A stretch of DNA of 34,154 nucleotides from an uncultured Oscillospiraceae bacterium (lineage in GTDB: Bacteria; Bacillota; Clostridia; Peptostreptococcales; Anaerovoracaceae): contig CAZWCK010000001.1 in assembly GCA_964632625.1 (NCBI GenBank), positions 1-34,154 on the forward strand, written 5' to 3'. The number at the start of each line of letters is the position of its first letter. The stretch's first letter is position 1. Both the position numbers and the translations under genes were made by a program. Below are positions 1-26,199 of this stretch, one piece after another. The notes beneath the pieces are model-generated. The model was not told where the DNA came from. It did no database searches and saw only the letters and a program-made list of their open reading frames with translations.

Positions 1-318
1 TTTGCAACTGTTGGCTGGGAATTATCAGATGATGAAAAATTAATTTCTACTACTCCATTGTATGCTAACACTGAAGCAGTGTACAAGTGGATGAATGCTT
101 CTGGAACAGAAAAAAGCTTTTCAACAGTTTACAGGAATCCATATTTGAAATATAAAACAGCAGAGGGTAAAAATGTATTCTTATGGTATGAGAATGAGCA
201 GAGCATGTTTGAAAAAGCTGCTCTTGCTAGAATGTTTGGAATAAATGAAATTTCAATTTGGAGACTAGGACTAATATCTAATTACAGTGGATATAGTGTA
301 TTGGATAGTTTGAAATAG
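1..318 (+). CDS. Glycoside hydrolase family 18-like protein, C-terminal fragment (5' end outside the window)
   Basis: Frame 1 is open from base 1 to TAG 316-318. The C-terminal 'FLWYENEQSMFEKAALARMFGINEISIWRLGL' resembles the end of the GH18 barrel of Firmicute spore-associated chitinase-like hydrolases (YaaH/YdhD type). Confidence 0.55.
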   Translation, partial: FATVGWELSDDEKLISTTPLYANTEAVYKWMNASGTEKSFSTVYRNPYLKYKTAEGKNVFLWYENEQSMFEKAALARMFGINEISIWRLGLISNYSGYSVLDSLK

Positions 319-354
319 TTGAAACAGAAATTCAAATATAGAGGAGATGGTATT

Positions 355-777
355 GTGAATTATAAAGTTATTTATTTTACAAGAACTGGTACTAGTAGAA
401 GAGTGGCTGAAAAAATAGCAAATAAGCTTTCTTTAGAGGCTATGGAAATTACCGATAATATGAATTGGAAGGGTATTTTTGGATTTATCAAAGGTGGATA
501 TTATGCTTCAACAAACAGGGATGTTAAAATAAAAATTCCCAGAAATTTGGATGATGCTGAGGAACTTATTGTAGTTACGCCTTTATGGGCCGGAAGAGTA
601 GCCCCTGCTATTAGCACTTTTTTAGAAACTAAAGAATTAGATAAAATACATTTAGTTGTAACTTCTGGCGGTAGTGTTTTAAAAAATCGTTTAGGATACA
701 AATCAGTTATTGATATTGTCAAAAGTAAAAACAATGAAGAGGCTGTTATTAATGATTTTTTAAATAGCTTAGAATAA
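355..777 (+). CDS. Flavodoxin-like protein
   Basis: 'KVIYFTRTGTSRRVAEKIANKL' is a flavodoxin-type FMN-binding N-terminus. GTG 355 lies 8 nt after GAGGAG (341-346). The TTG at 319 used by the ORF track directly abuts the upstream stop and has no SD. Confidence 0.7.
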   Translation: MNYKVIYFTRTGTSRRVAEKIANKLSLEAMEITDNMNWKGIFGFIKGGYYASTNRDVKIKIPRNLDDAEELIVVTPLWAGRVAPAISTFLETKELDKIHLVVTSGGSVLKNRLGYKSVIDIVKSKNNEEAVINDFLNSLE

Positions 778-826
778 GCTGATGTTTTTTCTATAGCTTC
801 AATTTAAAGAACCAAACATAAGATAT

Positions 827-870
827 AAAAATCTCATAGCTGTTAGTGGTAACGGCATTGAGATTTTTTT
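827..870. terminator. Bidirectional rho-independent terminator between convergent genes
   Basis: AAAAATCTCA-TA-GCTGTTA-gtgg-TAACGGC-AT-TGAGATTTTTTT: a long hairpin flanked by an A-run and a T-run, lying between the flavodoxin (+) and DUF2892 (-) 3' ends. Confidence 0.75.
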
Positions 871-948
871 AGTTACTTTCATAAATTCATATATTTAATT
901 TGATTGCATTTCATCTGCCTTAAGATTAGAAAGTCCTAGTTAAGAAAA

Positions 949-1143
949 TTAATTATTTTTTTTAGAATTACAGGTTGAAATTCCTAAAACATCACTAACA
1001 GGGCAGTAACGAATCAAACCTGTTATTATAGGGATTAAACCAATCAAACCCCAACTTTTTCTGAAGTATAAACCTGCAATAACGACTCCTGTGCCAATTA
1101 CAATTCTTGCAATTTGATCGGTCCTACCAACATTACATTTCAT
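949..1143 (-). CDS. DUF2892 (YgaP-like) small membrane protein
   Basis: A 64-aa protein with 'GRTDQIARIVIG' followed by two hydrophobic helices and 'RYCPV', the typical DUF2892 layout. Confidence 0.7.
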   Translation of the reverse strand: MKCNVGRTDQIARIVIGTGVVIAGLYFRKSWGLIGLIPIITGLIRYCPVSDVLGISTCNSKKNN

Positions 1144-1288
1144 TTAAATCACGTATAATCCAATTATCCTCATTTGAGGTGGTTGGATTATTTCCTTTCT
1201 CCCAACTATGTTGGGGTAATTCAATTACTTTGGTATAATAGTAAAGCACTGTGGATTTGTTCCTATTTTTTTACAGCCTTGACTGTTT

Positions 1289-1305
1289 TGAGGTGACTCA
1301 CCTCA
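1289..1305. promoter_or_regulatory. Perfect 17-bp palindrome TGAGGTGAcTCACCTCA (candidate operator) upstream of the DUF2892 gene
   Basis: Read directly from the sequence: 8-bp arms around a single central base, about 150 nt upstream of the minus-strand start at 1143. Confidence 0.35.
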
Positions 1306-1678
1306 GCGATATTTTGTGCAGTGGATTTAAATTTAATGCAAATTATTTAGAAATTCTTTAATAGTAGATGCGTTAGGGAAATATGCTGAAATAGATTTAA
1401 AAAGTTTAATGTACGTATTACATATTATTAAAATACTTGGTAATATTAACATTGAGAAGCAATTAATAACTGAATTATCTTTAGAGTATAATAAAATTTA
1501 TCGGTATAGTTAATTTTCAGCAATTTTTGTTAGATGGAACTAATTCTTTTCAAGCGTAAATCTAATTTATTAGTTGAAAGTGTAGAACCAAATATTATTT
1601 TAAAAATAATTTTACAATAAAAGGCTTAAATTAAAATTTATAAAATAGTTCAATAAACAGGAAAGGAGCTTATAAATA

Positions 1679-2080
1679 ATGGAAGAAATTTTCGACTTTT
1701 TAGAAAATAATAAATATGGAAGTCTTGCAACTTCTAAAGAAGAACAACCTTATGTAAGACCATTTGAATATGGCTTTAAAACAGATGAAGGTGTGTTTTT
1801 TTATACGTCGGATGATAAAGAAGTTTATTCACAGCTTCAGTCAAATCCAAGAGTATGCTTTTGCTCTACAGATAAGGATTTAACATATGTGCAGTTAAAA
1901 GGAGATGTGAAATTTACGGATGAAGAAAAATATAAAGATTTAATGTTATCAAAAAGTAGGAATGCACGTAAAATATATGAAACAACAGATAATTCCAGAC
2001 TTAAAGTATTTTATATGCCTCATGGGAGTGTAACAATGCATAAATATGAAACTGGATATGTAAACGATGTGAAATTTTAA
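1679..2080 (+). CDS. Pyridoxamine 5'-phosphate oxidase family (FMN-binding split-barrel) protein
   Basis: 'FLENNKYGSLATSKEEQPYVRPFEY...FFYTS' matches the PNPOx-like N-terminus. AGGAG lies 8 nt upstream of the ATG. Confidence 0.7.
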   Translation: MEEIFDFLENNKYGSLATSKEEQPYVRPFEYGFKTDEGVFFYTSDDKEVYSQLQSNPRVCFCSTDKDLTYVQLKGDVKFTDEEKYKDLMLSKSRNARKIYETTDNSRLKVFYMPHGSVTMHKYETGYVNDVKF

Positions 2081-2114
2081 AGATTAATTACATGAATTTA
2101 TAATTAAAAGCAAC

Positions 2115-2150
2115 AAAAATGCATTACTCAAATAGGATAATGCATTTTTA
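2115..2150. terminator. Bidirectional rho-independent terminator
   Basis: AAAAATGCATTA-ctcaaatagga-TAATGCATTTTT lies between the convergent PNPOx-like (+) and DUF4397 (-) genes. Confidence 0.7.
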
Positions 2151-2223
2151 TGTTTATTGTAACTATAATTCATTAGTTAATATTTGCAACAATTTTTTAG
2201 GTATATAATTTTATGGTAATATT

Positions 2224-2871
2224 TTAATTCTTACCATCTAACACAAGCAGAGCTTGCAGTTCGGGCTTTTCGCCTACAAGACCTATAGCATATACGGTAT
2301 AGAACTCATCTGATTTTAGTTCTATATTTGGCACTGTAAGAACCACTGTAGGGGTTCCTGCCAATCTAACTTGCAGTGTGTAATTTGATGAAGGAACTGC
2401 GATGTATGAAGCCGCTTGTTTAAAGGAGACGTTACTAAATAGAATAGTACCATCTAGTAATGTAATGTCTACTGCTGGAGCATTAGGGGATAAGTGCGCA
2501 AAACGAATCATTGCGTTGTTGTCTTTTATAGGAATATTAGCATCAGGAATTGAAAGAAAACCTATATCACTTAGCGTTCCGCATGCAGCAACTGTCAATA
2601 TATCATCTTTATTGACGGTTAACATATTAGACAATACAGGAACATCTTTAGTTCCAGTTACGTAAAGAGAAATTTTATAAGTTCCTTCAATCAATGGTAT
2701 ATATGCTGAATATTGACTATAGGGAAGGTTTTCTACCATTAATTTATCATCTGCGTATACGTCCACATTTGGAGCATTTGGAACTGTATGCATAATTCTA
2801 ACATAACCTAAAAAACGTTTTTGAACTTTTTGTATTCCAGAGTTTTCCGTATAAATTGGATTATAATACAT
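2224..2871 (-). CDS. DUF4397 domain-containing protein (two internal repeats)
   Basis: Two repeated modules, 'VRIMHTVPNAPNVDVYADDKL' and 'IRFAHLSPNAPAVDITLLDGT', are characteristic of DUF4397. Confidence 0.7.
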   Translation of the reverse strand: MYYNPIYTENSGIQKVQKRFLGYVRIMHTVPNAPNVDVYADDKLMVENLPYSQYSAYIPLIEGTYKISLYVTGTKDVPVLSNMLTVNKDDILTVAACGTLSDIGFLSIPDANIPIKDNNAMIRFAHLSPNAPAVDITLLDGTILFSNVSFKQAASYIAVPSSNYTLQVRLAGTPTVVLTVPNIELKSDEFYTVYAIGLVGEKPELQALLVLDGKN

Positions 2872-3016
2872 ATTTTCACCTCTTAATTTTGATAAAAATA
2901 AATTTAATATAAATTTTATTCACAATTATAATATGCAGCAATATATATTTAGGTTAAAAGTATATAAATGTTATTTTAATGCATAATAAATGATAAAATA
3001 GAAAAGAGGTGTTAGT

Positions 3017-3664
3017 ATGAAAAAATTGCTTTATATAACCGCTAATCCTAAACCAGAGAAATTATCAGCTAGTAAAACTGTTGGAAGAAATTTGGTAGAT
3101 ACATTTTTAAATCAAACTACAGATTATATATTAGAAGAAGTAGATTTGTTTCAAGATCATATTCCACAGTTAAAGCATATATATTATGAAAGTCGTAGCA
3201 CACTCATTAGTGCAGATAAAATAAAAAAATTAAACCCATTAGATCAAAAAGAAGTGCAACGTATTGTAGAACTTTGTGATCAGTTTAGAAGTGCAGATGT
3301 TTATATTTTAGCAGCTCCAATGTGGAGCCTATCATTTCCAGCCCCTGTAAAAGAGTATTTGGATTGTATTATTCAAGCAAATATGACAATAGAGTTTGAG
3401 AATGAAAAGCCACATGGAATATTGGATGATAAACCTCGAGCATTTGTATATGTGCAATCATCTGGTGCAAAAATTCCGTGGATTATAAGGCCAGCATTAA
3501 ATAAAGGAATAAATTATGTGCATGATATCATGAAATTTATTGGAATCAGCAATTTTGAAGAACTATTAGTAGACGGTACAGGTTCTGATGTTGGACAAAC
3601 ACAAGAAGCTATTGAAATGGCAAAACTAAGAACAGATGAATTGGTAAAAAAAATAATGTTGTAA
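3017..3664 (+). CDS. azoR: FMN-dependent NADH-azoreductase-like / flavodoxin-fold NAD(P)H oxidoreductase
   Basis: 'MKKLLYITANPKPEKLSASK', 'ADVYILAAPMWSLSFPAPVKEYLD' and a length of about 210 aa fit the AzoR family. GAGGTG SD upstream. Confidence 0.7.
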   Translation: MKKLLYITANPKPEKLSASKTVGRNLVDTFLNQTTDYILEEVDLFQDHIPQLKHIYYESRSTLISADKIKKLNPLDQKEVQRIVELCDQFRSADVYILAAPMWSLSFPAPVKEYLDCIIQANMTIEFENEKPHGILDDKPRAFVYVQSSGAKIPWIIRPALNKGINYVHDIMKFIGISNFEELLVDGTGSDVGQTQEAIEMAKLRTDELVKKIML

Positions 3665-3718
3665 TATAAGCACTTAAGTGTTTTTTATATGGCAACTTAT
3701 TTATGGAAATCATTACCA

Positions 3719-3747
3719 TTGACAAATGGAAAGTAAATTGGTAAAAT
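3719..3747 (+). promoter_or_regulatory. Sigma-A-type promoter of the peroxiredoxin gene
   Basis: TTGACA (3719-3724), 17-nt spacer, TAAAAT (3742-3747). Confidence 0.6.
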
Positions 3748-3752
3748 TATGC

Positions 3753-3778
3753 AATTACAATATGTATATATTGTAATT
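3753..3778. promoter_or_regulatory. Perfect 11-bp inverted repeat (candidate repressor operator) at the predicted peroxiredoxin transcription start
   Basis: AATTACAATAT-gtat-ATATTGTAATT, immediately downstream of the -10 box. Confidence 0.5.
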
Positions 3779-3838
3779 AACCGATAGACATACCTTAGGG
3801 CTTGTGGATTGAGGAAATAAATACAAAGGAGAAATTTT

Positions 3839-4480
3839 ATGAAAATAGCGCTTAGAGACAAATTTCCTGAAATGAAAGTAGAGACGACAAAGGGAACTAT
3901 TAATTTGCCAAATGATTATAAGGGCAAATGGTTTATATTGTTTAGCCATCCAGCAGATTTTACTCCTGTATGTACTACAGAATTTGTTTCCTTTCAAAAG
4001 AAAAAGAAACAGTTTAATGAATTAGGAGTAGAATTAATTGGGTTGAGTGTGGATAACTTAGAATCTCACCACAAGTGGATTCAATGGATTAAAGAAAATA
4101 TATATGTTCAAATAGAGTTTCCTATAATAGATGATGAAAATAGAAAAATTTCTGAAACTCTTGGATTGATTCATCCTAATGAAGACGATACAGCAGCAGT
4201 AAGAGCAGTAATCATAGTTGACCATAATGGAAAAGTAAGAACTATGCTTGAATATCCCAAAGAAATAGGAAGAAATATTGATGAAATATTAAGAACAGTA
4301 AGGGCTTTAAAAATGGCATCTATTAAAAAAGTTTTTTCTCCCGCAAATTGGCCGTGTAATGAAATCATAGGAGATAAAGTTCTATTTCATAGAGGCGAAG
4401 ACGATGATCCATCATTAGATAAGAAACGTGGAATATATAGTTTATCAGATTGGTTTATATATAAAAATATGGAAGAATAA
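3839..4480 (+). CDS. Peroxiredoxin (Prx6/1-Cys-like, AhpC/TSA family)
   Basis: The '[18 protein letters not shown]' peroxidatic-Cys motif and a length of about 213 aa. AAGGAG SD upstream. Confidence 0.9.
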
Positions 4481-4603
4481 AAATATTCTTTGACTTTTTT
4501 ACATATTTATTTAAAAAAACAGTGCGGCATGGGCTATTTTATGATATGCTAAGTGAGTAAGTTCTATTTTATAAATAGATATAATATTTTTGGAGGTAAT
4601 TGA

Positions 4604-4816
4604 ATGAGTACAGGTACAGTAAAATGGTTTAAACAAGATAAGGGCTTCGGATTTATTGCAGATGATAATGGAGGAGATGACGTTTTTGTTCATTTCTCAG
4701 CTATTCTTTCTGATGGATATAAGTCACTAAGTGAAGGACAAAAGGTTAGTTTTGACACAGAGTGTGATCCAAGAAATGGTAAACTTAAAGCAAGTAATGT
4801 TTCGGTACTGAAATAA
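4604..4816 (+). CDS. Cold-shock protein (CspA family)
   Basis: RNP1 'KGFGFI' and RNP2 'VFVHF' within '[31 protein letters not shown]'. GGAGG SD upstream. Confidence 0.95.
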
Positions 4817-4882
4817 TTTTAAGCTTAAGTATACCATAAAGGCATTTTGCCAGGAAAAGTTTAAAAAGTGCTATTATAAGCT

Positions 4883-4920
4883 AAAAGCTGATTTCTATAT
4901 TGGATAGAAACCAGCTTTTT
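4883..4920 (+). terminator. Rho-independent terminator of csp
   Basis: AAAAGCTGaTTTCTA-tattgga-TAGAAAcCAGCTTTTT. Confidence 0.75.
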
Positions 4921-5085
4921 AAATAATTATCCTAAGTATTGTGATAATTGGCTACCGTTTAAATAAAGAAAATGCAAAGTTCTCAAGCTAATTTGGCATA
5001 TGCAATTATGTATTTTCCTAGGGGTTGATTTAATTTAAGTTTTTAGGTAAAATATATGTGATAAAGAATTTGGGAGGGACAAAAA

Positions 5086-17635: not shown

Positions 17636-17704
17636 TGTATTATTAATAGATAGGGTATTCTAGTTATTATGGTACAGGGAACATGTAGGAGAAAGGATAT
17701 TAAA

Positions 17705-18355
17705 ATGGTTAGATTGGCTCCGTCGATTTTGTCGGCAGATTTTTCAAAATTGGGAGAACAGGTGGCTATTATTGAAGAGGCGGGGGCTCACCTTATACAT
17801 GTAGATGTTATGGATGGTCATTTTGTGCCAAATATAAGTTATGGTGCTACTGTAATGAAGAGCTTGTGCGGGAAAACCAAATTACCTTTTGATGTGCATC
17901 TTATGATAGAGAATCCAGATAGGTACATTGAAGATTTCATTACAGATAACACAGAGTTTATATCTGTTCATCAGGAGGCTTGCCCTCATCTTCACAGAAG
18001 TATTCAGAATATAAAGAGTTTGGGGGTAAAGGCTGGGGTTGCCTTGAATCCGGGGACTTCATTAAGTACTCTTGATTACATACTTGAAGATGTGGATCTG
18101 GTTCTTGTAATGTCTGTAAATCCGGGTTTTGGAGGACAAAAATTTATTCCGTCTGTTGTGGAAAAGGTTAGGATGCTCAGTGAAATAAGAAAAAACACGG
18201 GACTTAAATTTGAAATTGAGATGGATGGAGGATTGGATTTGAATAATTTCAAGACGGTCACTGATGAAGGTGTTGAAATTGTAGTGGCTGGGTCGGCTGT
18301 GTTTGGGGCAGAAGATATTAATGCAAGAGTAAAGGAATTTTTAAAAAATATGTAG
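17705..18355 (+). CDS. rpe: Ribulose-phosphate 3-epimerase
   Basis: 'PSILSADF', 'HVDVMDGHFVPN' and 'MSVNPGFGGQKF'. The ATG at 17705 gives the canonical N-terminus and follows AGGAGAAAGGA. Confidence 0.95.
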   Translation: MVRLAPSILSADFSKLGEQVAIIEEAGAHLIHVDVMDGHFVPNISYGATVMKSLCGKTKLPFDVHLMIENPDRYIEDFITDNTEFISVHQEACPHLHRSIQNIKSLGVKAGVALNPGTSLSTLDYILEDVDLVLVMSVNPGFGGQKFIPSVVEKVRMLSEIRKNTGLKFEIEMDGGLDLNNFKTVTDEGVEIVVAGSAVFGAEDINARVKEFLKNM

Positions 18356-18385: not shown

Positions 18386-18413
18386 AAGAGAGCAGGAAAC
18401 TGCTCTCTTTTTG
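18386..18413 (+). terminator. Rho-independent terminator ending the priA...rpe block
   Basis: AAGAGAGCAG-gaaa-CTGCTCTCTT followed by TTTGG. Confidence 0.8.
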
Positions 18414-18492: not shown

Positions 18493-18520
18493 TTGACAAG
18501 AAAAATAACTGTGTTATAAT
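18493..18520 (+). promoter_or_regulatory. Near-consensus sigma-A promoter with extended -10, driving the Tad-like cluster
   Basis: TTGACA (18493-18498), 16-nt spacer, TGtTATAAT (-10 at 18515-18520). Confidence 0.7.
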
Positions 18521-18610
18521 TACAATAATACCAATAAATGTAATTAAAGCGAGTTGAATTGCGAAAGGAGGAAAAAATACCAAGTAAGTCGTAGTGAAAG
18601 GGGGAAATTG

Positions 18611-19258
18611 ATGAAGTACGGTAAGCCTATATTGGGAATTATCATGATAGCACTAGCTCTAATGCTTATGTTCTTTTGGGAGACTAGTGGAAGACAAATG
18701 GTGACGACAAGTGAAGTTTTGGTGGCAGCAATGGATATTAAAGATGGTGAAATTTTAGAGGAATCAAAGATTAAGGTGGCCAAAACATTAAATGAAAATT
18801 TAATGAAGGATTGCCTATTAAGGGAACAAATGCAAATTGTAATTGGGGAAAAGACCAACTGTGACATTTTTCAAAATCAGCAACTATCAAGAAAATATTT
18901 CCTGAAGAGCAAAAATAAAATAAAAAAAGATTATACGTTATTTACATTGTACTCACACTGGATGAAAAATTTGAGTAGCTCAGTGCGTAAAGGGGATTTA
19001 ATTGATATCTATACGGCAAGAGAAAATATATATTTAGGAAATTTTAGAGTAGCATTTGCGAAGGACAATGCAAATCATGAAGTGGTGGATGAGGGAAAGC
19101 CAAAATCAGCAGAATGCATACTTGATAGAACGGATAGTAATCTAACTCTTGACCACATCGAAATTGAAGCAACTTTGCAGGATTACATGCAAATTTCATC
19201 ATATGGTGCAATAGAAGAGGAAGGGCTTATTATTGTACAAAGAGAGGAAGAAGATTAG
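18611..19258 (+). CDS. cpaB: CpaB/RcpC-like Flp pilus assembly protein (N-terminal TM helix plus SAF domain)
   Basis: The TM segment 'ILGIIMIALALMLMFFW' is followed by the SAF-like 'VLVAAMDIKDGEILEESKIKV' and a later 'VRKGDLIDIY' module. ATG 18611 lies 7 nt after GGGGG. Confidence 0.65.
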   Translation: MKYGKPILGIIMIALALMLMFFWETSGRQMVTTSEVLVAAMDIKDGEILEESKIKVAKTLNENLMKDCLLREQMQIVIGEKTNCDIFQNQQLSRKYFLKSKNKIKKDYTLFTLYSHWMKNLSSSVRKGDLIDIYTARENIYLGNFRVAFAKDNANHEVVDEGKPKSAECILDRTDSNLTLDHIEIEATLQDYMQISSYGAIEEEGLIIVQREEED

Positions 19259-20034
19259 TGGAAAATTTATTTGTGTTTCATGGTACCGATCATAAATGTG
19301 GAACAACTATGGTAGCTCAGTCAGTTGCAGAGATTATTGCAGAGCAAAGAAAAAACATTAATGTATTGATGATTTCATTGAATGGAAGAAAAAGCAACGA
19401 ATATGTGAGCGAGAATATTGCACCTATTGACAATTACAAGTTACAAATTGATAGTGGCATAATCATAGATAAAAATATTATTGCAAAAAACAAACATAAG
19501 GATAATCTTTATATGGTTGGTGGAATAGAAAGAGAACTTGAGCAAAGGTATTACCTGCCAAATACTGCAGCTAAACTATTAGAGGGAATGACACCCCAGT
19601 TTGAAATTATAATTGCAGACACTGGAAGTGAAATAGACAATGGGTTGGCAATAGGTGGACTGTCCTTATCCAAGCTAAATATGATGGTAATGACCCAAAA
19701 CGAAAGTGCTGTTTGTAGGTATGAAAAGAACAGGGAGATATTCAATCAGCTAAAGATAAACTTCGATGCATATTTAATAAATAAATTCTGTGAAGATGAC
19801 CCATATTCCTTGAGTTACTTCTCCCAAAGACTTGACATCCCAGGGGAAAAATTTAAAAAAATTCATATGGCAAACTGTGGAAGGCAGGCAGAAATGGAAT
19901 ATAGGACCTTTGTCAATTACAATGAAGAGCAATATATTCAGGATGTAATAAAAATAAGCAATATTATATTGCAAAGCTGCAATATGGAAGAAATTAAATT
20001 TCAGAGGAAGAAAAAATGGAAAAATTTTATTTAG
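19258..20034 (+). CDS. TadZ/CpaE-like ParA/MinD-fold protein with a degenerate P-loop
   Basis: ParA/MinD-like layout: N-terminal beta-strand plus loop 'VFHGTDHKCGTTMVAQSVAE', then 'IIIADTGSE'. It occupies the TadZ position between cpaB and the ATPase. GTG start overlaps the upstream TAG. Confidence 0.55.
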   Translation: MENLFVFHGTDHKCGTTMVAQSVAEIIAEQRKNINVLMISLNGRKSNEYVSENIAPIDNYKLQIDSGIIIDKNIIAKNKHKDNLYMVGGIERELEQRYYLPNTAAKLLEGMTPQFEIIIADTGSEIDNGLAIGGLSLSKLNMMVMTQNESAVCRYEKNREIFNQLKINFDAYLINKFCEDDPYSLSYFSQRLDIPGEKFKKIHMANCGRQAEMEYRTFVNYNEEQYIQDVIKISNIILQSCNMEEIKFQRKKKWKNFI

Positions 20035-21371
20035 ATAAATATGTGAGAAATGAAAATACTGTTTTTTTATCAAGTAACTACAGCTTTTCAAGTGTATGTC
20101 AGCTCATAAAAAACGAATTTCAAAAAGAATGGAAGTCGCAGGAAGAGAATACGGAGAAACTAGTGGAGTTACAAAAAAAAGCAATAATAGGCTACAGCGT
20201 AGAAGTTAAATATTTCAAGAAAAAAATTGGAGAAATCCTAAGGTTATTCAATATTAATAGGATTGAATTTCCACAATGGTATGAAAATTTGGAGGAAGCC
20301 ATATATCACGAAAACTGGGGGCTTGCTGGAATTGCAGAATGGTTTTCACCACAACATGAGCAAAGCAGCTCAGCAAAAATAATAGGCGATCAAATTTACT
20401 TTCTGGAGAATGGGAGAATGAAGCTTAAACCACAAAAAATCAGTAAAAACAGGAGAGAGCAGCTAACAAGAGCATTTTTACTTATAACACCAGAGGAAAA
20501 AATAAACAAGGATTTTCATGAATTATACATGATAGATGGAACAAGAATAACAATTTTTTCAGGTCACATGGTAAAGGAAAATCAAGATGTAATAATATTT
20601 AGAAGATATGTAATTCCACAATATACATTTGAAGAGCAGGCAAGAAGGGGAACTATTCCTCAAAAGGCAATTCCCTTGTTTGAAAAAATGGTACAGCTTG
20701 GATATAACTGTGCCTTCACAGGAGCTCCCCGTTCCAGTAAAACCACGTTTTTAACCACATGGCAAAGCTATGAGGAAAGAGAATTAGAAGGAGTAATGGT
20801 GGAAACAGATCCTGAAATACCATTACATAAGCTTATGCCCAAAGCTCCTATTATGCAGATTTTAGCGGATAATGATGCACTGAAAAGTATTACAAAGAAC
20901 TTACTTCGCAGCGATGCAGACTATTTTATTATGGCAGAGGCGAGAGACGGGGTTGCACTTGATACAGCATTACGATTGGCAAGCAAAGGAATTCGGAGAA
21001 TGAAAATAACCTTCCACAGCAAGAACCCGCTGAATTTCCCATATGATGTAGCTGATGAAATAGTGCGTACTTATGGAGGCGATGTTTTTTATAATGCAAA
21101 AAGAGCAGCAGGCAGCTTTGATTATATTTTTCATTTCATTCAATTACGAAACAAGTCACAAAAAAGGTTAAGGAGTATTTACGAAATAAGCTATAGTAAT
21201 GAAAACTCCAAAATTGATATGAATTTAATATGCAACTATGACGTTAACAAGGAGGACTGGAGATTCTATGAGTATATAGGAAAGGAAAAAGAAGAACTTG
21301 GCAAGGTAGAAAACCTGCAGGCCTTTAAAGAATTTAAGGATGTTCTTTGTGACCTTGCAAATCCAGTGTAA
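20016..21371 (+). CDS. cpaF: CpaF/TadA-family type II/IV secretion (T2SSE) ATPase
   Basis: Walker A-like 'TGAPRSSKTTFL', Asp box 'VMVETDPEIPL', Walker B 'DYFIMAEARD' and His box 'KITFHSKNP', in the order seen in CpaF/VirB11-type ATPases. Overlaps the upstream gene by 19 nt. Confidence 0.8.
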   Translation: MEKFYLDKYVRNENTVFLSSNYSFSSVCQLIKNEFQKEWKSQEENTEKLVELQKKAIIGYSVEVKYFKKKIGEILRLFNINRIEFPQWYENLEEAIYHENWGLAGIAEWFSPQHEQSSSAKIIGDQIYFLENGRMKLKPQKISKNRREQLTRAFLLITPEEKINKDFHELYMIDGTRITIFSGHMVKENQDVIIFRRYVIPQYTFEEQARRGTIPQKAIPLFEKMVQLGYNCAFTGAPRSSKTTFLTTWQSYEERELEGVMVETDPEIPLHKLMPKAPIMQILADNDALKSITKNLLRSDADYFIMAEARDGVALDTALRLASKGIRRMKITFHSKNPLNFPYDVADEIVRTYGGDVFYNAKRAAGSFDYIFHFIQLRNKSQKRLRSIYEISYSNENSKIDMNLICNYDVNKEDWRFYEYIGKEKEELGKVENLQAFKEFKDVLCDLANPV

Positions 21372-21461
21372 AAATTTAAAAATCGTCTAAAAGTAGTAGA
21401 AGAAAGATAGATAGGGGGTGCATGGAGGTGTTTAGAAGAAATATATCATGCAGAGAATTTC

Positions 21462-22406
21462 ATGAATGAAGGAATAGTTAAAATTGTAATAGTTATAAGC
21501 TATATAATGCTACTTACAGGAATAGTATTGTTGTGGTTTTTTGAGTTTTGGAAGTTGTACATGAATATAAAAATGAGGAATAGGCTTAGAACTAGAAAAA
21601 ACCAGGGAAAAAGTAGGGGACGTTTGTACGAACACGTGAGTATGCTTTTAAAAGTTACTTTGGGTAAAAATGTGAAAATAGTAGGGTTCATTATTTTTAA
21701 TCTGATTATTTTTGTTTCCGTATTTATAGGAGGTCTACGAAATTATTCGCTTGGCTATGCAGTATTTTTGGGAGGATGTGCATCTACATTATCTGTGTTG
21801 ATTTTAGAAATAAGGTTAGGAAATATCAGAAGAAAGGGTAGCTATGAGGGAGAGTTTTTTGTTAGTAAAATGCTTACTAAATATAGGATAAGCGGAGAAA
21901 ACATTTATGAAGCTATTGAAATGGCATTGCAGGACAATGCAAATACAAAAATGTGCAGTAAAATTCTGTATGAGATTTTATTAGATGTTCGAAACACTTC
22001 AAATAAGGAGGATATGAAGAAAATTTTTAATAAATTTTATTTCGGCATAAATACAAATTGGAGTAAAATGATGGCATATAATTTTTATTTGTCAGCAACA
22101 AGGGGAATAGACATAACGGGAGCCATGGAAGATATTTTGTTTCAACTTAGGGAGGTCAGAATGTTAGGTGAAGAAAGAAAGAGAGCTAATGGAGAGGCTA
22201 CAAGAATTGTAGTATTTCTTATTCCGATATTGTATTTATCAACAATATTGATTTCAATTAATTTTGTGGGTATTTCAGTATCTGAATTTATAAAAAATCA
22301 ATTTCTGACAAAGGGTGGATTTCTATTATTTGTAATAAGTATATTTATGTTTTTATTAAATATTATTCTGACTCAAATCGTAAACAATAAAAAGTTTGAT
22401 TATTAG
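21462..22406 (+). CDS. tadB: TadB-like platform protein (T2SSF domain)
   Basis: N-terminal TM helix, a cytoplasmic helical domain and C-terminal TM helices. 'GEERKRANGEATRIVVFLIPILYL' resembles the T2SSF core. Position follows the ATPase. Confidence 0.6.
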   Translation: MNEGIVKIVIVISYIMLLTGIVLLWFFEFWKLYMNIKMRNRLRTRKNQGKSRGRLYEHVSMLLKVTLGKNVKIVGFIIFNLIIFVSVFIGGLRNYSLGYAVFLGGCASTLSVLILEIRLGNIRRKGSYEGEFFVSKMLTKYRISGENIYEAIEMALQDNANTKMCSKILYEILLDVRNTSNKEDMKKIFNKFYFGINTNWSKMMAYNFYLSATRGIDITGAMEDILFQLREVRMLGEERKRANGEATRIVVFLIPILYLSTILISINFVGISVSEFIKNQFLTKGGFLLFVISIFMFLLNIILTQIVNNKKFDY

Positions 22407-22417
22407 GGAGGTGGAGA

Positions 22418-23071
22418 ATGAACGATATATGGATCTATATTGCTATTGCGGCATATGTGATATGGATATATTATGCTGTGGTCTTGATTAGAAACAAGAA
22501 GTACCAAGGGAGGTTTACAAGAAAAAAACTTAAAGAAAGATTTAGTAAAATTTTGCCATTGGCAAGGTTAAAACTGCAAAGAACATTCCTTGTGAGGAGC
22601 AGGTTTGAGGATTTAGTGGATAAAGAGGTCTATGAAGCCTTCTCATTTCTCAGAAATATAATTATTGCTTCTGGAGACCGAATAAATGGAGACTATGTAT
22701 TGGAGCAGCTGTCACATGGTAAGGGAATATTACAGCCAGCATATGTAAGAATGCTTTCATTGTTTAGGGAAAACCAAAAAGAAGCAGGGGTAAAAGAATT
22801 TCTAATGGTTGCAGAAACCTCAATGAGTATTGAACTCGCAGGAATTCTCGCAAGGTGGGATCACATTGGAAACTCTCAATTGAAAGATGTATTAATATCA
22901 TATCAAAAGAGCATTAAGGAAATCTGGGTAACCAGACAAAAGCAAAAGGATGAAATCATAAGTGATTTAATATATTTACCTGTAGTTGTAAATGTATTTG
23001 TCATATTTATAAATTTTATATATGTAGGTTATTTTATAAGTCAGCAGGAAATGTTGAAAATGTTATTGTAA
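22418..23071 (+). CDS. tadC: TadC-like platform protein (T2SSF domain)
   Basis: Same architecture as the preceding gene: N-terminal TM, a helical cytoplasmic domain, and the C-terminal TM segment 'LIYLPVVVNVFVIFINFIYVGYF'. GGAGGTGGAG SD upstream. Confidence 0.6.
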   Translation: MNDIWIYIAIAAYVIWIYYAVVLIRNKKYQGRFTRKKLKERFSKILPLARLKLQRTFLVRSRFEDLVDKEVYEAFSFLRNIIIASGDRINGDYVLEQLSHGKGILQPAYVRMLSLFRENQKEAGVKEFLMVAETSMSIELAGILARWDHIGNSQLKDVLISYQKSIKEIWVTRQKQKDEIISDLIYLPVVVNVFVIFINFIYVGYFISQQEMLKMLL

Positions 23072-23096
23072 ATGGAGAAGGGAAAGGAATGTGATT

Positions 23097-23243
23097 ATGA
23101 AACAGTTGATTGTATTGATAGCTACAATTATTTTAGGGCTCGCAATTGCAAGTATAGTAATGGGTTTTGGGGGAACGGCAAAGGATATTGGCCAACAAAG
23201 TACAACTAAGATAGAAAGCGTATTTGAAAAGGAATGGATATAA
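23097..23243 (+). CDS. Flp-like mini-pilin candidate 1 (48 aa; not in the supplied ORF track)
   Basis: My translation is MKQLIVLIATIILGLAIASIVMGFGGTAKDIGQQSTTKIESVFEKEWI. A GGAAAGGAA SD precedes it. A hydrophobic helix followed by a short polar tail resembles mature Flp. Position follows tadC. Confidence 0.55.
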   Translation: MKQLIVLIATIILGLAIASIVMGFGGTAKDIGQQSTTKIESVFEKEWI

Positions 23244-23245
23244 GA

Positions 23246-23392
23246 ATGAAACAATTTATTGTAATGTGCAGTTCTATCGCTTTAGGATTGGTTATTTATA
23301 ACATAATTGTCGGAAATGATGATGGAAGTATATTTATGGTGCTGAAATCTTGCTGGTCAAATGAAGTGGCTGCACGTAGTCTGATGCCGTAG
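23246..23392 (+). CDS. Flp-like mini-pilin candidate 2 (48 aa; not in the supplied ORF track)
   Basis: My translation is MKQFIVMCSSIALGLVIYNIIVGNDDGSIFMVLKSCWSNEVAARSLMP. It starts 2 nt after the stop of candidate 1, with 'aaGGAAtGGAtataagaATG' upstream. Confidence 0.45.
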   Translation: MKQFIVMCSSIALGLVIYNIIVGNDDGSIFMVLKSCWSNEVAARSLMP

Positions 23393-23433
23393 GATAATCA
23401 TGGCAAGGGAATATAGTGAATTTGGAGGAGATA

Positions 23434-23838
23434 ATGAAACAGTTTATAGTATTAATTGCAATTTTGCCACTACTGTTGATATTTATGATGCAATTTTCTT
23501 ATGACCAAAAAAATGCAGGACTAATAGCAGAAATTCAGAGCATTGTGTATTTTGCAAAGGAAGAAGCCAAGCAGCAAGGCGGGTTTTCTAAAGAAATGAA
23601 AACAGAACTGAAAGATAACATTGCAGCTATAGCCAATGTCTCTTCAAGTGATGTATTAATTGAATGTGATGAGGAAATCAAGTATCGTTACAGTAATGGA
23701 CAATACCGACAGATATATTACAAAATTTCTGTGCCCATAAGGGAAGTCATGGCAGGGGGAGAATTGTTTGGTATTGATAAAGAAAAAAACAAGTATGTTT
23801 ATGTAATAGATAGTTATACAGCTAGTGAAAAATTATAG
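23434..23838 (+). CDS. TadE-like pseudopilin candidate
   Basis: ATG 23434 follows GGAGGAG. The N-terminus 'MKQFIVLIAILPLLLIFMMQF' resembles the TadE-like hydrophobic segment. The remainder is a soluble domain of about 110 aa. Confidence 0.5.
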   Translation: MKQFIVLIAILPLLLIFMMQFSYDQKNAGLIAEIQSIVYFAKEEAKQQGGFSKEMKTELKDNIAAIANVSSSDVLIECDEEIKYRYSNGQYRQIYYKISVPIREVMAGGELFGIDKEKNKYVYVIDSYTASEKL

Positions 23839-23908
23839 TGTGCAATGTCTACCTAATTAATATTAAGATTGCGCCAATAGTAATAAGAAACGGAGAGAGA
23901 CAAAAGAA

Positions 23909-24352
23909 ATGAAGGTGTTTATTGTATTTTTGGCATTGCTTGTTGTTTGTAGTATGGGACTAATATATCAGGGGGATATGAATTATTATATGCACGAACA
24001 GTTAACTGTAAAGGAAATGGCAGAGGAATGTGCTTGTGGCGCAGCGCTTTTGATAGATCAAAAGGCTTATGGAACCGGAAAACTAGTTTTTTTACAGGAT
24101 GAAGGAAATGACTATGCTAAAAATTTTGTGCAATTTAGGCAGGAGAATCGTAACAATGATTATAATAAGAGAGAACTTTCGCTGAATCTACAGTTTGAAG
24201 ATGATGAGGTGGGATATGGGAAAGAAAATACAGAAAAAAGACCTGCAGTAATTGCTACAGTCATAAGTGAGGGCGAGGATATTTTTAGGCTTCCTTTTCT
24301 GGAAGTTAAGACCGTGAAAAGAATTGCCCGATATGAATTGGATAAATCTTGA
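23909..24352 (+). CDS. TadF/TadG-like pseudopilin candidate
   Basis: N-terminal 'MKVFIVFLALLVVCSMGLIY' is followed by 'MAEECACGAALLID', reminiscent of the TadG-like N-terminal AADAAALAGA helix. It is the last gene of the cluster. Confidence 0.4.
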   Translation: MKVFIVFLALLVVCSMGLIYQGDMNYYMHEQLTVKEMAEECACGAALLIDQKAYGTGKLVFLQDEGNDYAKNFVQFRQENRNNDYNKRELSLNLQFEDDEVGYGKENTEKRPAVIATVISEGEDIFRLPFLEVKTVKRIARYELDKS

Positions 24353-24376
24353 CAATTACCTGCATTGTAATATAAT
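24349..24376 (+). promoter_or_regulatory. Near-consensus sigma-A promoter of thrS
   Basis: TTGACA (24349-24354, overlapping the upstream stop codon), 16-nt spacer, TATAAT (24371-24376). Confidence 0.6.
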
Positions 24377-24453
24377 AATAATGTTGGTATTGTGCAGAGT
24401 TTATGCAATTTGTGCTCTGTTTACGATAGATAAATAGTATAGGAGAAAAAATT

Positions 24454-26199
24454 ATGGCAAAGGAAAAAATTAATTTTGAAGATGAACAGGTAAGACATAA
24501 TTTCAGACATACAGCATCACATATTTTGGCTCAGGCGGTAAAAAATATTTGGCCGGAAGCAAAGCTTGCAATCGGCCCTGCAATTGATAATGGATTTTAT
24601 TATGACTTTGATTTGGAATATAAATTTACAGAGGCAGATTTCTTAAAAATTCAAAAGGAAATGAAGAAAATTGTTCAGTCAAACTTGAAGTTGGAAAGAT
24701 TTGAACTTCCGAGAGAAGAAGCTATTAAGTTTATGGAGGAAAAGGGAGAACCATATAAGGTTGAACTTATTAATGATTTGCCAGAGGATGCAATAATCTC
24801 GTTTTATAAGCAGGGTGACTTTGTTGACTTGTGCGCAGGTCCACATATGGAGTCAACAGGACAGATTAAAGCGTTCAAAATAATGAGTGTTGCGGGTGCG
24901 TATTGGAGAGGTGATTCAGATAGGAAAATGCTTCAAAGATTGTATGCGACTGCTTTTTTAACCCAGGAAGAGTTAGATGAATATGTAAATCGTCTTGAAG
25001 AGGCAAAGAAGAGAGACCACAGAAAAATCGGTAAAGAAATGGATTTATTTGCAATTTATGAAGAAGGACCTGGTTTTCCATTTTTTATGCCAAAAGGTAT
25101 GGTAATAAGAAATGAACTTGAGAATTACTGGAGAGTTGAGCATAGAAAGAGGGGCTATGAGGAAATAAAAACGCCACTTATATTAAATGAGCAGCTTTGG
25201 AGAACTTCTGGACATTGGGATCACTACAAGGACAATATGTACTTTACAAAGATAGATGATGAAGATTACGCTATTAAGCCAATGAATTGTCCGGGTTCAA
25301 TGCTTGCTTATAAGAGAAAAATGTATTCCTATAGAGATTTCCCTATGAGAGTAGGTGAATTGGGTCAGGTACACAGGCATGAGCTTTCAGGTGCATTACA
25401 CGGATTAATGAGGGTAAGAACTTTTACCCAGGATGATGCACACATATTTATGCTTCCAGAACAGGCAAAAGATGAAATCGTGGGTGTTGCAAAATTTATT
25501 GATGATATTTACACATTATTTGGCTTTAAGTATCACATTGAATTGTCTACAAGACCGGAAGATTCAATGGGAACTGACGAAGAATGGAATATGGCTGAAG
25601 AAGCTCTTAGAGACGCTATGGTTGAAGTTGGAGTTCCTTATGTGGTAAATGAAGGTGACGGTGCGTTCTATGGACCTAAGCTTGACTTCCATTTAGAGGA
25701 TTCAATTGGGAGAACTTGGCAGTGTGGAACAATTCAGCTTGATCTTCAAATGCCTCAGAGATTTGACCTTACTTATGTAGGTGCGGATGGTGAAAAACAC
25801 AGACCTCTTATGATTCATAGAGTAATCTTTGGATCAATTGAAAGATTTATTGGCATTTTGACAGAGCATTTTGCTGGTAAATTCCCACTTTGGCTTGCAC
25901 CTGTGCAAGTTAAACTTATGACTGTAACGGAAAAGTTTGTTCCATATGCAAAAGAAGTTGGAAAGAAACTTGAGGCAATGGGTCTTCGTGTTGAAGTAGA
26001 TGCCAGAAATGAAAAAATAGGATATAAACTTAGAGAAGCCAGAAATGAGAGAGTTTCCTATATTTGCGTAATAGGAGAGCGCGAGGCAGAGGCAGGGACT
26101 TTGACTGTGCGTTCAAATAAGGTTGGAGAGCTTGGGGAAATGTCAGTTGATGAGTTTGCTTCTAAGTTGTTGGATGAAATAACAAACAAAGACATTTAA
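24454..26199 (+). CDS. thrS: Threonine--tRNA ligase (short form lacking the N-terminal TGS domain)
   Basis: Editing-domain 'HTASHILAQAV' and 'DLCAGPH'; class II motifs 'HRHELSG', 'FTQDDAHIF', 'GAFYGPKLDF' and 'HRVIFGSIERF'. An in-frame TAG at 24427-24429 precludes a longer N-terminus. Confidence 0.95.
   Translation: MAKEKINFEDEQVRHNFRHTASHILAQAVKNIWPEAKLAIGPAIDNGFYYDFDLEYKFTEADFLKIQKEMKKIVQSNLKLERFELPREEAIKFMEEKGEPYKVELINDLPEDAIISFYKQGDFVDLCAGPHMESTGQIKAFKIMSVAGAYWRGDSDRKMLQRLYATAFLTQEELDEYVNRLEEAKKRDHRKIGKEMDLFAIYEEGPGFPFFMPKGMVIRNELENYWRVEHRKRGYEEIKTPLILNEQLWRTSGHWDHYKDNMYFTKIDDEDYAIKPMNCPGSMLAYKRKMYSYRDFPMRVGELGQVHRHELSGALHGLMRVRTFTQDDAHIFMLPEQAKDEIVGVAKFIDDIYTLFGFKYHIELSTRPEDSMGTDEEWNMAEEALRDAMVEVGVPYVVNEGDGAFYGPKLDFHLEDSIGRTWQCGTIQLDLQMPQRFDLTYVGADGEKHRPLMIHRVIFGSIERFIGILTEHFAGKFPLWLAPVQVKLMTVTEKFVPYAKEVGKKLEAMGLRVEVDARNEKIGYKLREARNERVSYICVIGEREAEAGTLTVRSNKVGELGEMSVDEFASKLLDEITNKDI

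Follow-up and report, generated by a model that had tools for sequence, protein, structure and literature searches.

Within the 34,154-nucleotide stretch of DNA analysed here, hereafter the window (positions 1 to 34,154 of the forward strand of contig CAZWCK010000001.1, assembly GCA_964632625.1), nine co-directional open reading frames (ORFs), named g1 to g9, lie on the + strand between the genes rpe and thrS (18554-24352 as first called). The window comes from an uncultured Oscillospiraceae bacterium that GTDB places in the Anaerovoracaceae. We consider it probable that these genes form one operon for a highly divergent type IV filament (T4F) machine, of Tad/archaeal type, that has become fixed in the Anaerovoracaceae chromosome. 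Sequence comparisons further place its nearest relatives in transfer regions, where they form modules of Firmicute conjugative plasmids and of integrative and conjugative elements (ICEs). This reading draws directly on the order and conservation of the genes, the folds of g2 and g3, the SAF domain of g1 and the N-terminal anatomy of g6-g9, and also on the absence of a neighbouring gene for an A24 prepilin peptidase and on the family link to conjugative elements. An initial annotation, made from the letters of the window alone, had described a Tad/Flp-like pilus cluster, and this architecture and gene order hold overall.

A gene cluster conserved beside thrS

A pattern scan for g3 in one genome per GTDB species returned 161 relatives, the best 80 of which were taken as loci. 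All of these 80 belong to the Anaerovoracaceae or 'Family XIII', and they include Anaerovorax, Sinanaerobacter, Aminipila, Clostridium aminobutyricum, Bacilliculturomica and many metagenome-assembled genomes. When the loci were searched with the window proteins (tblastn), the order g1-g9 was found to be kept throughout. All seven larger genes were present in 55 of the 80 loci, most of the others being short contigs, and the 48-codon ORFs were intact in about 60. The gene thrS lay downstream in 32 of the 40 loci having at least 6.5 kb of flank, and rpe lay upstream in 28 of the 48 having at least 6 kb. The median identity to the window was 58% for g3, which is close to the values for PrkC (58%) and RsgA (59%), while Rpe and ThrS reached 67% and 77% and the other cluster proteins 33-47%. 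The divergence of the cluster showed modest positive correlations only with that of its flanks, which is weak support for co-inheritance. Because the same cluster lies beside thrS, and usually beside rpe, in dozens of species, these comparisons identify it as a lineage-core, inherited trait of this family of gut and sediment anaerobes and not a recent insert.

The initial annotation had regarded the cluster as the accessory insert of the window. The comparison of the rpe-thrS interval in relatives overturns this view, since the same cluster occupies this locus across dozens of Anaerovoracaceae species, and the accessory idea survives in deep time only, because the other branches of the family sit on conjugative elements. 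Recent horizontal insertion was rejected as an explanation, given the unremarkable GC content, the lack of tRNAs and repeats and the conserved locus. The GC content shows no anomaly over the cluster, and neither a tRNA, nor an Rfam family, nor any convincing flanking direct repeat was found in the window; for tRNAs and repeats this agrees with what had been read from the letters. The same holds for secretin and integrase, neither of which was seen in the window, where the Pfam scan took in the nine cluster proteins only.

Comparison with about 60-80 orthologues led to the revision of four starts, those of g1, g6, g7 and g8. For g1, the orthologue consensus and a Shine-Dalgarno (SD) sequence place the start at ATG 18611 rather than at TTG 18554, and the revised starts of g6 (23097), g7 (23246) and g8 (23434) each lie at the codon that opens an MKQ sequence. 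The genes are tightly spaced: g1 and g2 share nucleotide 19258, g2 and g3 overlap by 19 nt, and the remaining gaps measure 2-90 nt. The upstream flank is formed by rpe (17669-18355), whose intrinsic terminator on the + strand (18387-18412), as read from the letters, has a 9-bp stem (AGAGAGCAG/CTGCTCTCT), a GAAA loop and a T-run; the downstream flank is thrS (24454-26199). A putative sigma-70-type promoter, TTGACA-16-(TG)TATAAT, follows the terminator on the + strand (18493-18520), with a 12/12 match and an extended -10 TG. Promoter-like sites as a class are not commoner than in shuffled sequences (27 found, 29.2 expected), and thus only the perfect match at 18493-18520 is notable. The nine co-directional genes, the rpe terminator and the near-consensus promoter of the initial annotation were all recovered in this way.

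Protein components and leaderless putative subunits

The identities of the components were assessed with orthologues that were taken from the 80 related genome loci and scanned one by one. The protein g1 (18611-19258, + strand; 215 aa) combines an N-terminal transmembrane (TM) segment with a SAF domain and is CpaB/RcpC-like. The window protein matches SAF with E=2e-3 and TIGR03177 CpaB with E=4e-3 (0.0041); SAF was matched by 45 of the 48 g1 orthologues (best 3.1e-9), in line with the TM-plus-SAF part of the earlier CpaB-like call, and the RcpC domain PF16976 by none of the 48 members. We propose that g1 is a wall-spanning alignment or conduit subunit. The next protein, g2 (19258-20034, + strand; 258 aa), has a MinD/ParA fold and a degenerate P-loop and is a TadZ/CpaE-like positional analogue, as its gene lies immediately upstream of the ATPase gene and overlaps it. 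Its profile matched archaeal MinD in the PDB (1g3q, 2.8e-7), in agreement with the TadZ-like ParA/MinD-fold protein called initially, and AAA_31 was matched by 8 of 48 members. In the P-loop consensus, GxDHKVGTT, the lysine of the canonical GK[ST] is replaced. The chromosomal form has no receiver-like N-domain, and homologues on mobile genetic elements (MGEs) are 372-397 aa long.

The product of g3 (20016-21371, + strand; 451 aa) is a hexameric-type secretion ATPase with a CpaF/TadA-like predicted fold. It carries a Walker A motif, GAPRSSKT (G236, K242), an acidic box (E308) and a His box (H334), and K242, E308 and H334 are invariant. The window protein matched Pfam T2SSE with E=0.11 only and NCBIfam ComGA with E=0.024, and T2SSE (PF00437) was matched below the gathering score by 19 of 21 relatives (best 1.9e-5). 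Against PDB sequences, the family profile found FlaI (2.9e-4) and also archaeal GspE, VirB11 and CpaF (0.011). The AlphaFold2 model (predicted local distance difference test, pLDDT, 79.8) had TadA/CpaF 8rkd as its best Foldseek match (E=1.8e-23, TM-scores 0.70/0.74, 447 columns), and the next PDB matches were FlaI and archaeal GspE. Judged by its predicted fold, g3 is a hexameric ATPase of the T2SSE/PilB/CpaF family, as the initial annotation had it.

That annotation had also named two T2SSF platform proteins, g4 (21462-22406, + strand; 314 aa), a polytopic all-helical membrane protein in the TadB position, and g5 (22418-23071, + strand; 217 aa), a membrane protein in the TadC position. The T2SSF matches of g5 reach from position 18 to position 123 of the 125-position profile and score about 13 bits, the cut-off being 25.2, and g5 is probably a very divergent T2SSF domain; its profile found nothing useful among PDB sequences. 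Homologue searches with g4 gave 8 and then 12 matches, with an alignment of 16 rows, and hhalign detected a weak colinear match between g4 and g5 (E=0.0019, probability 14%). The homology of g4 to T2SSF is not demonstrable. In the T2SSE/T2SSF profile check the window proteins fail, and fold and family-level evidence rescue the ATPase only.

The remaining four genes, all on the + strand, encode the two 48-residue, Flp-sized proteins and the two pseudopilin-like proteins that had been recognised at the outset. They are g6 (23097-23243; 48 aa), a leaderless pilin-like protein with MKQLIVLIATIILGLAIASIV followed by a variable polar tail; g7 (23246-23392; 48 aa), also leaderless and pilin-like, with the conserved C-terminus VW...I..RT..P; g8 (23434-23838; 134 aa), which has the N-terminus MKQFIVL and an LP..L...Q motif and stands in the TadE/DUF4320 position; and g9 (23909-24352; 147 aa), which starts MKVFIVF and stands in the TadF/G position. 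Among about 60 orthologues of each, the N-termini of g6, g7 and g8 read M-K-Q-[ILFV]-I-V-[LM] and that of g9 M-K-V-F-I-V-F, and no leader, Gly(-1) or Glu5/Tyr6 was found in any of them. For g6 (median length 48), an M-K-Q start occurs in 60/60 orthologues and Asp or Glu within residues 1-22 in 0/60, and g7, g8 and g9 behave likewise.

The start sites of g6-g9 are fixed by in-frame stops, which lie at a median of 6-10 codons upstream (8 for g6) and often immediately upstream, and by SD sequences about 8 nt upstream. In several loci a stop codon directly precedes the ATG of g7, and no alternative start exists in 38/61 loci for g6, 44/63 for g7, 56/65 for g8 and 53/63 for g9. The shared N-terminus is visible even in the DNA, the first 30 nt of coding sequence being 83% identical between g6 and g8. 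One N-terminal motif common to four otherwise unrelated proteins is a hallmark of pilin and pseudopilin sets, and here the shared motif seems to be the mature-like end itself. Family profiles gave little: Flp PF04964 did not match the window g6 or g7 at E<=1, and the G/XXXXEY motif occurred in no orthologue; DUF4320 was matched by 1 of 42 g8 members (E=0.0086), with no TadE match for g8; and PF13400 'Tad' (TadE/G-like) was matched by 5 of 49 g9 orthologues (best 0.0052). We regard g6 as the candidate major subunit and g7 as a candidate minor or priming subunit.

Genes for A24 peptidases were sought by a Pfam scan of hydrophobic ORFs and then by phmmer together with the motif G-x-G-D-[VI]-K in all stop-to-stop ORFs of at least 80 aa. 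Across the 88 loci examined, no such peptidase goes with the module over a distance of about 10 kb, and none was found in the window by the single-sequence phmmer and motif scan, as had first been noted. The sole A24 gene of the screen (L068:19065-19613) is part of an adjoining canonical Tad locus (L068:19065-21225) on scaffold 3 of Sinanaerobacter chloroacetimidivorans, about 5 kb downstream of a second, ICE-like copy of the module. This canonical locus encodes the A24 peptidase (DIRKRIIPN ... GGGDIKL), a CpaB that matches PF16976 with 2.3e-15 and a TadZ-like protein whose P-loop, GSGKTT, is normal. Canonical and divergent systems coexist in this one Sinanaerobacter genome, and since the canonical one is found readily by Pfam and has its TadV, canonical Tad systems are easy to recognise in these organisms.

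Relatives on conjugative elements

Searched against 1.84 billion representative proteins, the g3 profile matched 628 at E<=1e-3 and 105 at E<=1e-30. The ATPase family is therefore small, sharply isolated and set apart from mainstream CpaF. Its distant members, whose contexts were sampled one at a time, lie in transfer regions of Firmicute conjugative elements, beside genes for relaxase, VirD4, VirB4 and TrbL. In two loci (L082 and L083) the module is directly downstream of genes for a relaxase and a VirD4-type coupling protein, accompanied in L082 by TrbL and Toprim genes, and in both it is followed by SLH and giant surface protein genes. Genes for VirB4-like, TrbL, TraC-like and T4SS_pilin proteins precede the module in L084, a VirB4-like gene follows it in L087, and a Ser/Thr kinase gene precedes it in L081, a chromosome or megaplasmid locus of Paenibacillus thalictri. 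In PLSDB, the window ATPase matched 60 plasmids, 30 of them typed as conjugative (tblastn, E=4e-42; 29% identical residues, with about 89% of the length aligned), with hosts that include Bacillus, Cytobacillus, Alicyclobacillus, Paenibacillus and Planococcus.

The plasmid pHT77 of B. thuringiensis HD73 (pHT73-type) illustrates the arrangement. Its genes encode, in order, a MobQ relaxase, VirD4, TopB, ArdC and a 429-aa protein; then a SAF protein, a 378-aa protein, the ATPase and proteins of 323, 296, 47 and 48 aa, the last two being small hydrophobic proteins in the g6/g7 slot; and finally a 176-aa protein that has no window counterpart, a 128-aa protein and an M23 peptidase with a g9-like N-terminus. 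A separate VirB4/TrbL/NlpC-P60 block lies elsewhere on the plasmid, and no prepilin peptidase is annotated on it. The profile matches are colinear with the window (g1 7e-22, g2 2.5e-34, g3 2e-68, g4 1.6e-15, g8 6.6e-7, g9 1e-6), and the profiles of these six proteins match ORFs in the same positions in L081-L088 wherever the contig extends far enough. The g5 profile had no match in pHT77 or in the Paenibacillus locus, where a membrane protein of about 295 aa fills the slot. The small proteins of the relatives are also leaderless (MKDFL.., MKEFL.., MKKVIV.., MESAISKILL..), with MK[DEKN] before a hydrophobic stretch in distant relatives.

The pHT73-type module thus has the same protein families and order as the window cluster, which differs from it in several respects. 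The latter is chromosomal and appears to be vertically inherited, and no relaxase, VirD4, VirB4, TrbL, ArdA/ArdC or SLH/adhesin genes are nearby. The window g2 is shorter than the pHT73-type form by about 130 N-terminal residues and g5 by about 75; unlike the pHT73-type module, the window cluster has no 430-460-aa gene ahead of g1 and no fusion of g9 to an M23 hydrolase; and its small proteins start with MKQ... instead of MESAISK.... Queries for relaxase, the type IV coupling protein, VirB4, TrbL and TraC matched nothing in the 80 Anaerovoracaceae loci (tblastn). The second copy in Sinanaerobacter (L068), which is flanked by ArdA, D12 methyltransferase, DUF3849 and Fic genes, looks ICE-like. 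In a neighbour-joining tree that is rough, midpoint-rooted and without support values, all thrS/rpe-linked sequences form one clade with the ICE-like copies basal, nested within the MGE-linked diversity.

Conjugation of pHT73 has been demonstrated experimentally, and a review that credits its tra locus with 'three putative ATPases' makes no mention of a pilus, pilin or Tad (PMC9673590). The corresponding protein class of pAW63 was named VirB11 (PMC1196294), and the ATPase of the pHT73-type plasmid module, which is known from its genes, is treated as 'VirB11' (PMC1196294, PMC9673590). In the Listeria element LGI1, 'cpa, tad' genes beside type IV secretion system (T4SS) genes were likened to a proposed system of B. 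anthracis pXO1 (Gilmour et al., PMC2834635); the similarity of the gene sets of pXO1 and LGI1 to that of the window is by literature description only. The MGE-borne association has thus already been noticed in silico, and our literature searches found no description of the Anaerovoracaceae chromosomal system or of leaderless pilins or subunits.

Several further features of the relatives were recorded. The g9-like pseudopilin N-terminus of pHT77 (L088:18677-19594) is fused to an M23 peptidoglycan hydrolase (E=1e-6), which suggests a wall-cutting subunit carried by the machine. An extra gene for a 430-540-aa protein lies directly upstream of the SAF gene in four loci (L081:6513-8144, L083:6699-8090, L084:6357-7706, L088:10547-11836). 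The Paenibacillus thalictri product contains a Ser/Thr protein kinase domain and shows homology to the MGE proteins in its C-terminal part (E=7e-19). In the window, a PASTA kinase gene, prkC, sits two genes upstream of the cluster, and its proximity may be coincidental with respect to the kinase-bearing extra gene of the relatives. Downstream of distant MGE modules are genes for SLH and very large PKD/Ig-like surface proteins of 1400 to more than 1700 aa (L082:15331-21497, L083:14557-21152, L081:15107-18268, L090:13076-14215), which look like adhesin cargo or machine partners.

A gene for a polytopic membrane acyltransferase (HGSNAT_cat/Acyl_transf_3; motif RIWELDF.RG...L..DH) lies between g9 and thrS in at least nine Anaerovoracaceae loci (L003:14319-15122, L012:4893-5705, L021:4911-5699, L026:14257-15210, L030:14311-15219, L031:5893-6702, L066:14278-15090, L067:14203-15054, L080:6601-7428) and is absent from the window; the enzyme could modify the wall or a subunit. 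In the window, the interval 24349-24453 holds what reads as a second perfect TTGACA-16-TATAAT promoter, overlapping the g9 stop codon and leaving thrS with a leader of only about 78 nt. Contrary to what is usual for a Firmicute thrS, no T-box was detected there by Rfam. Positions 1-5000 of the window have a GC content of 0.29-0.30, against 0.34-0.39 across the priA-thrS block, and contain short ORFs only, some on the opposite strand.

Proposed machine, alternatives and significance

In the machine that we propose, the CpaF-like ATPase g3, hexameric by its predicted fold, would sit on a platform that g4 and g5 form in the membrane, and the MinD-fold protein g2 would recruit or position it. ATP-driven movement would then lift the membrane-embedded g6-g9, which look like N-in single-helix proteins with a common M-K-Q/V-hydrophobic N-terminus, from the bilayer and stack them into a helical filament or short pseudopilus. 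The proteins g7, g8 and g9 would probably prime the tip and g6 would probably be the bulk subunit, and a ring of g1, with its TM segment and SAF domain, might guide the fibre through the wall. Since g6-g9 have no leader, Gly(-1) or Glu5, they would be made in a mature-like form, and the A24 step would not be needed. We infer that the module passed from MGEs to the chromosome. Its ancestral role was probably cell-cell contact during conjugation; the Anaerovoracaceae machine seems no longer to be linked to relaxase, coupling protein or VirB4 at all, and it presumably serves the host now, for instance in adhesion, aggregation, DNA uptake or export. The thin type IVb pilus of R64 (IncI1) is a T4F pilus that lies within a conjugative element beside a separate T4SS and serves mating-pair stabilisation, which is also what we propose for the ancestral module on MGEs; the parallel is a functional analogy only, as the R64 thin pilus is Gram-negative, has a secretin and is built of leader-bearing pilins processed by prepilin peptidase.

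Several points weigh against this reading. The machine is known here from genes and predicted folds. None of the nine window proteins attains a Pfam or NCBIfam cut-off, all matches being sub-threshold, which bears out the initial remark that every component is divergent. The Walker A motif of g3 is deviant, with S/A instead of G before the lysine. The call of two platform proteins is weakly supported for g5, whose T2SSF matches are sub-threshold and occur in 16 of 48 orthologues (best 1.5e-3), and unsupported for g4: its window protein has no Pfam match, T2SSF was matched by 1 of 48 orthologues, its profile found nothing in the PDB, and its confident, all-helical AlphaFold2 model (pLDDT 81.5) had no Foldseek PDB match below E=0.76. 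By the tests applied, the presumed platform (g4/g5) and the subunits (g6-g9) are not assignable to known families. The latter fail the class III signal-peptide criterion, their naming as putative pilins is based on size, position and shared N-terminus only, and another enzyme may cleave them after MK or MKQ. In addition, the absence of A24 refers to the neighbourhood of the 88 loci and to the window and is not genome-wide, rpe linkage is absent in 20 of the 48 loci, and the tree is of the rough kind described.

An ordinary monoderm Tad/Flp adhesion-pilus island, recently acquired, with TadV elsewhere and pilins processed normally, would account for the CpaB-TadZ-TadA-TadB-TadC-Flp-Flp-TadE-TadF order, which is the established monoderm layout, and for the CpaF-like fold of the ATPase. 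In some known Tad systems tadV is unlinked, and Sinanaerobacter, at least one genome of the family, encodes an A24 peptidase. The monoderm Tad systems of Bifidobacterium breve and Micrococcus luteus (PMC6668835, PMC4322843) share several features with the cluster: their genes for CpaB-, ParA- and CpaF-like proteins, two membrane proteins, pilin(s) and two pseudopilins stand in the same order as in the window, their subunits are Flp-sized (about 48 aa), no secretin is present, and CpaF is the best structural neighbour of g3. However, the window subunits differ in having no prepilin leader, Gly(-1) or Glu5-Tyr6 motif, a difference that extends to about 60 orthologues of each; no TadV is near the window module; all Pfam families score below their thresholds; g1 shows no detectable RcpC domain; g2 lacks a receiver-like domain and carries a degenerate P-loop; and the ATPase is only about 13% identical to CpaF. 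Moreover, Flp PF04964 was never among the g6/g7 matches at E<=1, canonical Tad proteins in the same organism family score 1e-15 in Pfam whereas these do not, and the ATPase, whose profile finds only 628 of 1.84 billion proteins, stands apart from mainstream CpaF. The conservation of the locus in dozens of species, with no mobility genes in the flanks, has largely refuted the 'recent insert' part of this explanation, which we judge quite unlikely as a whole.

That the same machinery builds a short pseudopilus, acting as a piston or conduit for DNA uptake (Com-like competence) or for protein export through the thick wall, we think doubtful, and some observations do speak for it. The cluster is core, chromosomal and conserved in a housekeeping-like manner beside essential genes, which is typical of competence and secretion machines; its ancestry appears to lie in DNA-transfer elements; and MGE relatives fuse a g9-like subunit to an M23 wall hydrolase, suggesting a wall-penetrating device. 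DNA uptake in Micrococcus luteus is mediated by Tad pili (PMC4322843). The Com (ComG) pilus is likewise a minimal, chromosomal, vertically inherited T4F machine that has no secretin and consists of one ATPase, platform protein(s) and several small subunits with a common N-terminal motif. The differences are that ComC removes a class III leader from the Com pilins, that ComGA and ComGB are standard T2SSE and T2SSF members and that SAF and ParA-like partners are absent from Com. Within the specific queries made, ComEA, ComEC and substrate genes were not found linked in the window or the 80 loci, and the variable polar tail of g6 looks like that of a surface-exposed major subunit. A further alternative, which we regard as very improbable, denies the cluster a function of its own: it would be what is left, inert or decaying, of an integrated conjugative element, or would belong to a VirB11-type T4SS instead of forming a filament machine. 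Such an origin would fit relatives that are embedded in tra regions and annotated 'VirB11' (PMC1196294, PMC9673590), a chromosomal form without relaxase, VirD4 and VirB4, and g2 and g5 that are shorter than their MGE forms. Against it, the seven larger ORFs are intact in 55 of the 80 species-level loci and the 48-codon ORFs in about 60, the ATPase is as conserved as PrkC and RsgA with K242, E308 and H334 invariant, a perfect promoter lies upstream, and platform-like and pilin-like genes characterise T4F systems, not VirB11-containing T4SS. A SpoIIIA-like sporulation channel was dropped from consideration, because, on general knowledge, it is unlike the cluster in composition and order and lacks a pilin-like set.

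Under the preferred reading of a divergent T4F operon, we tentatively entertain a further possibility: the system may be a distinct T4F branch with leaderless subunits and no prepilin peptidase, which arose as a pilus of Gram-positive conjugative elements, was captured once by the ancestor of the Anaerovoracaceae and was kept as a core surface machine. To our knowledge, a prepilin peptidase and the class III signal currently count as defining features shared by every T4F system. If the subunits are assembled unprocessed, they would be a counter-example to the rule of class III leader plus A24 for type IV filaments and would show what an N-terminus minimally needs in order to be extracted from the membrane; the pair of N-terminal amine and Glu5 might then be replaced by Lys2-Gln3 (with Asp or Glu in some relatives). 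As far as we know, Gram-positive conjugative elements are also generally thought to lack conjugative pili. The family link to proven conjugative plasmids of the pHT73 type, whose ATPase has been filed as 'VirB11' since 2005, suggests a pilus-like device in some Gram-positive conjugation systems. Standard Pfam- or TXSScan-style detection would miss most of the components. The cluster would also illustrate clearly how an MGE module becomes domesticated at a core locus, with the direction as inferred above. For the Anaerovoracaceae, common anaerobes of the gut, the oral cavity and digesters whose cell biology is almost unexplored, it represents a conserved and apparently well-promoted putative surface machine.

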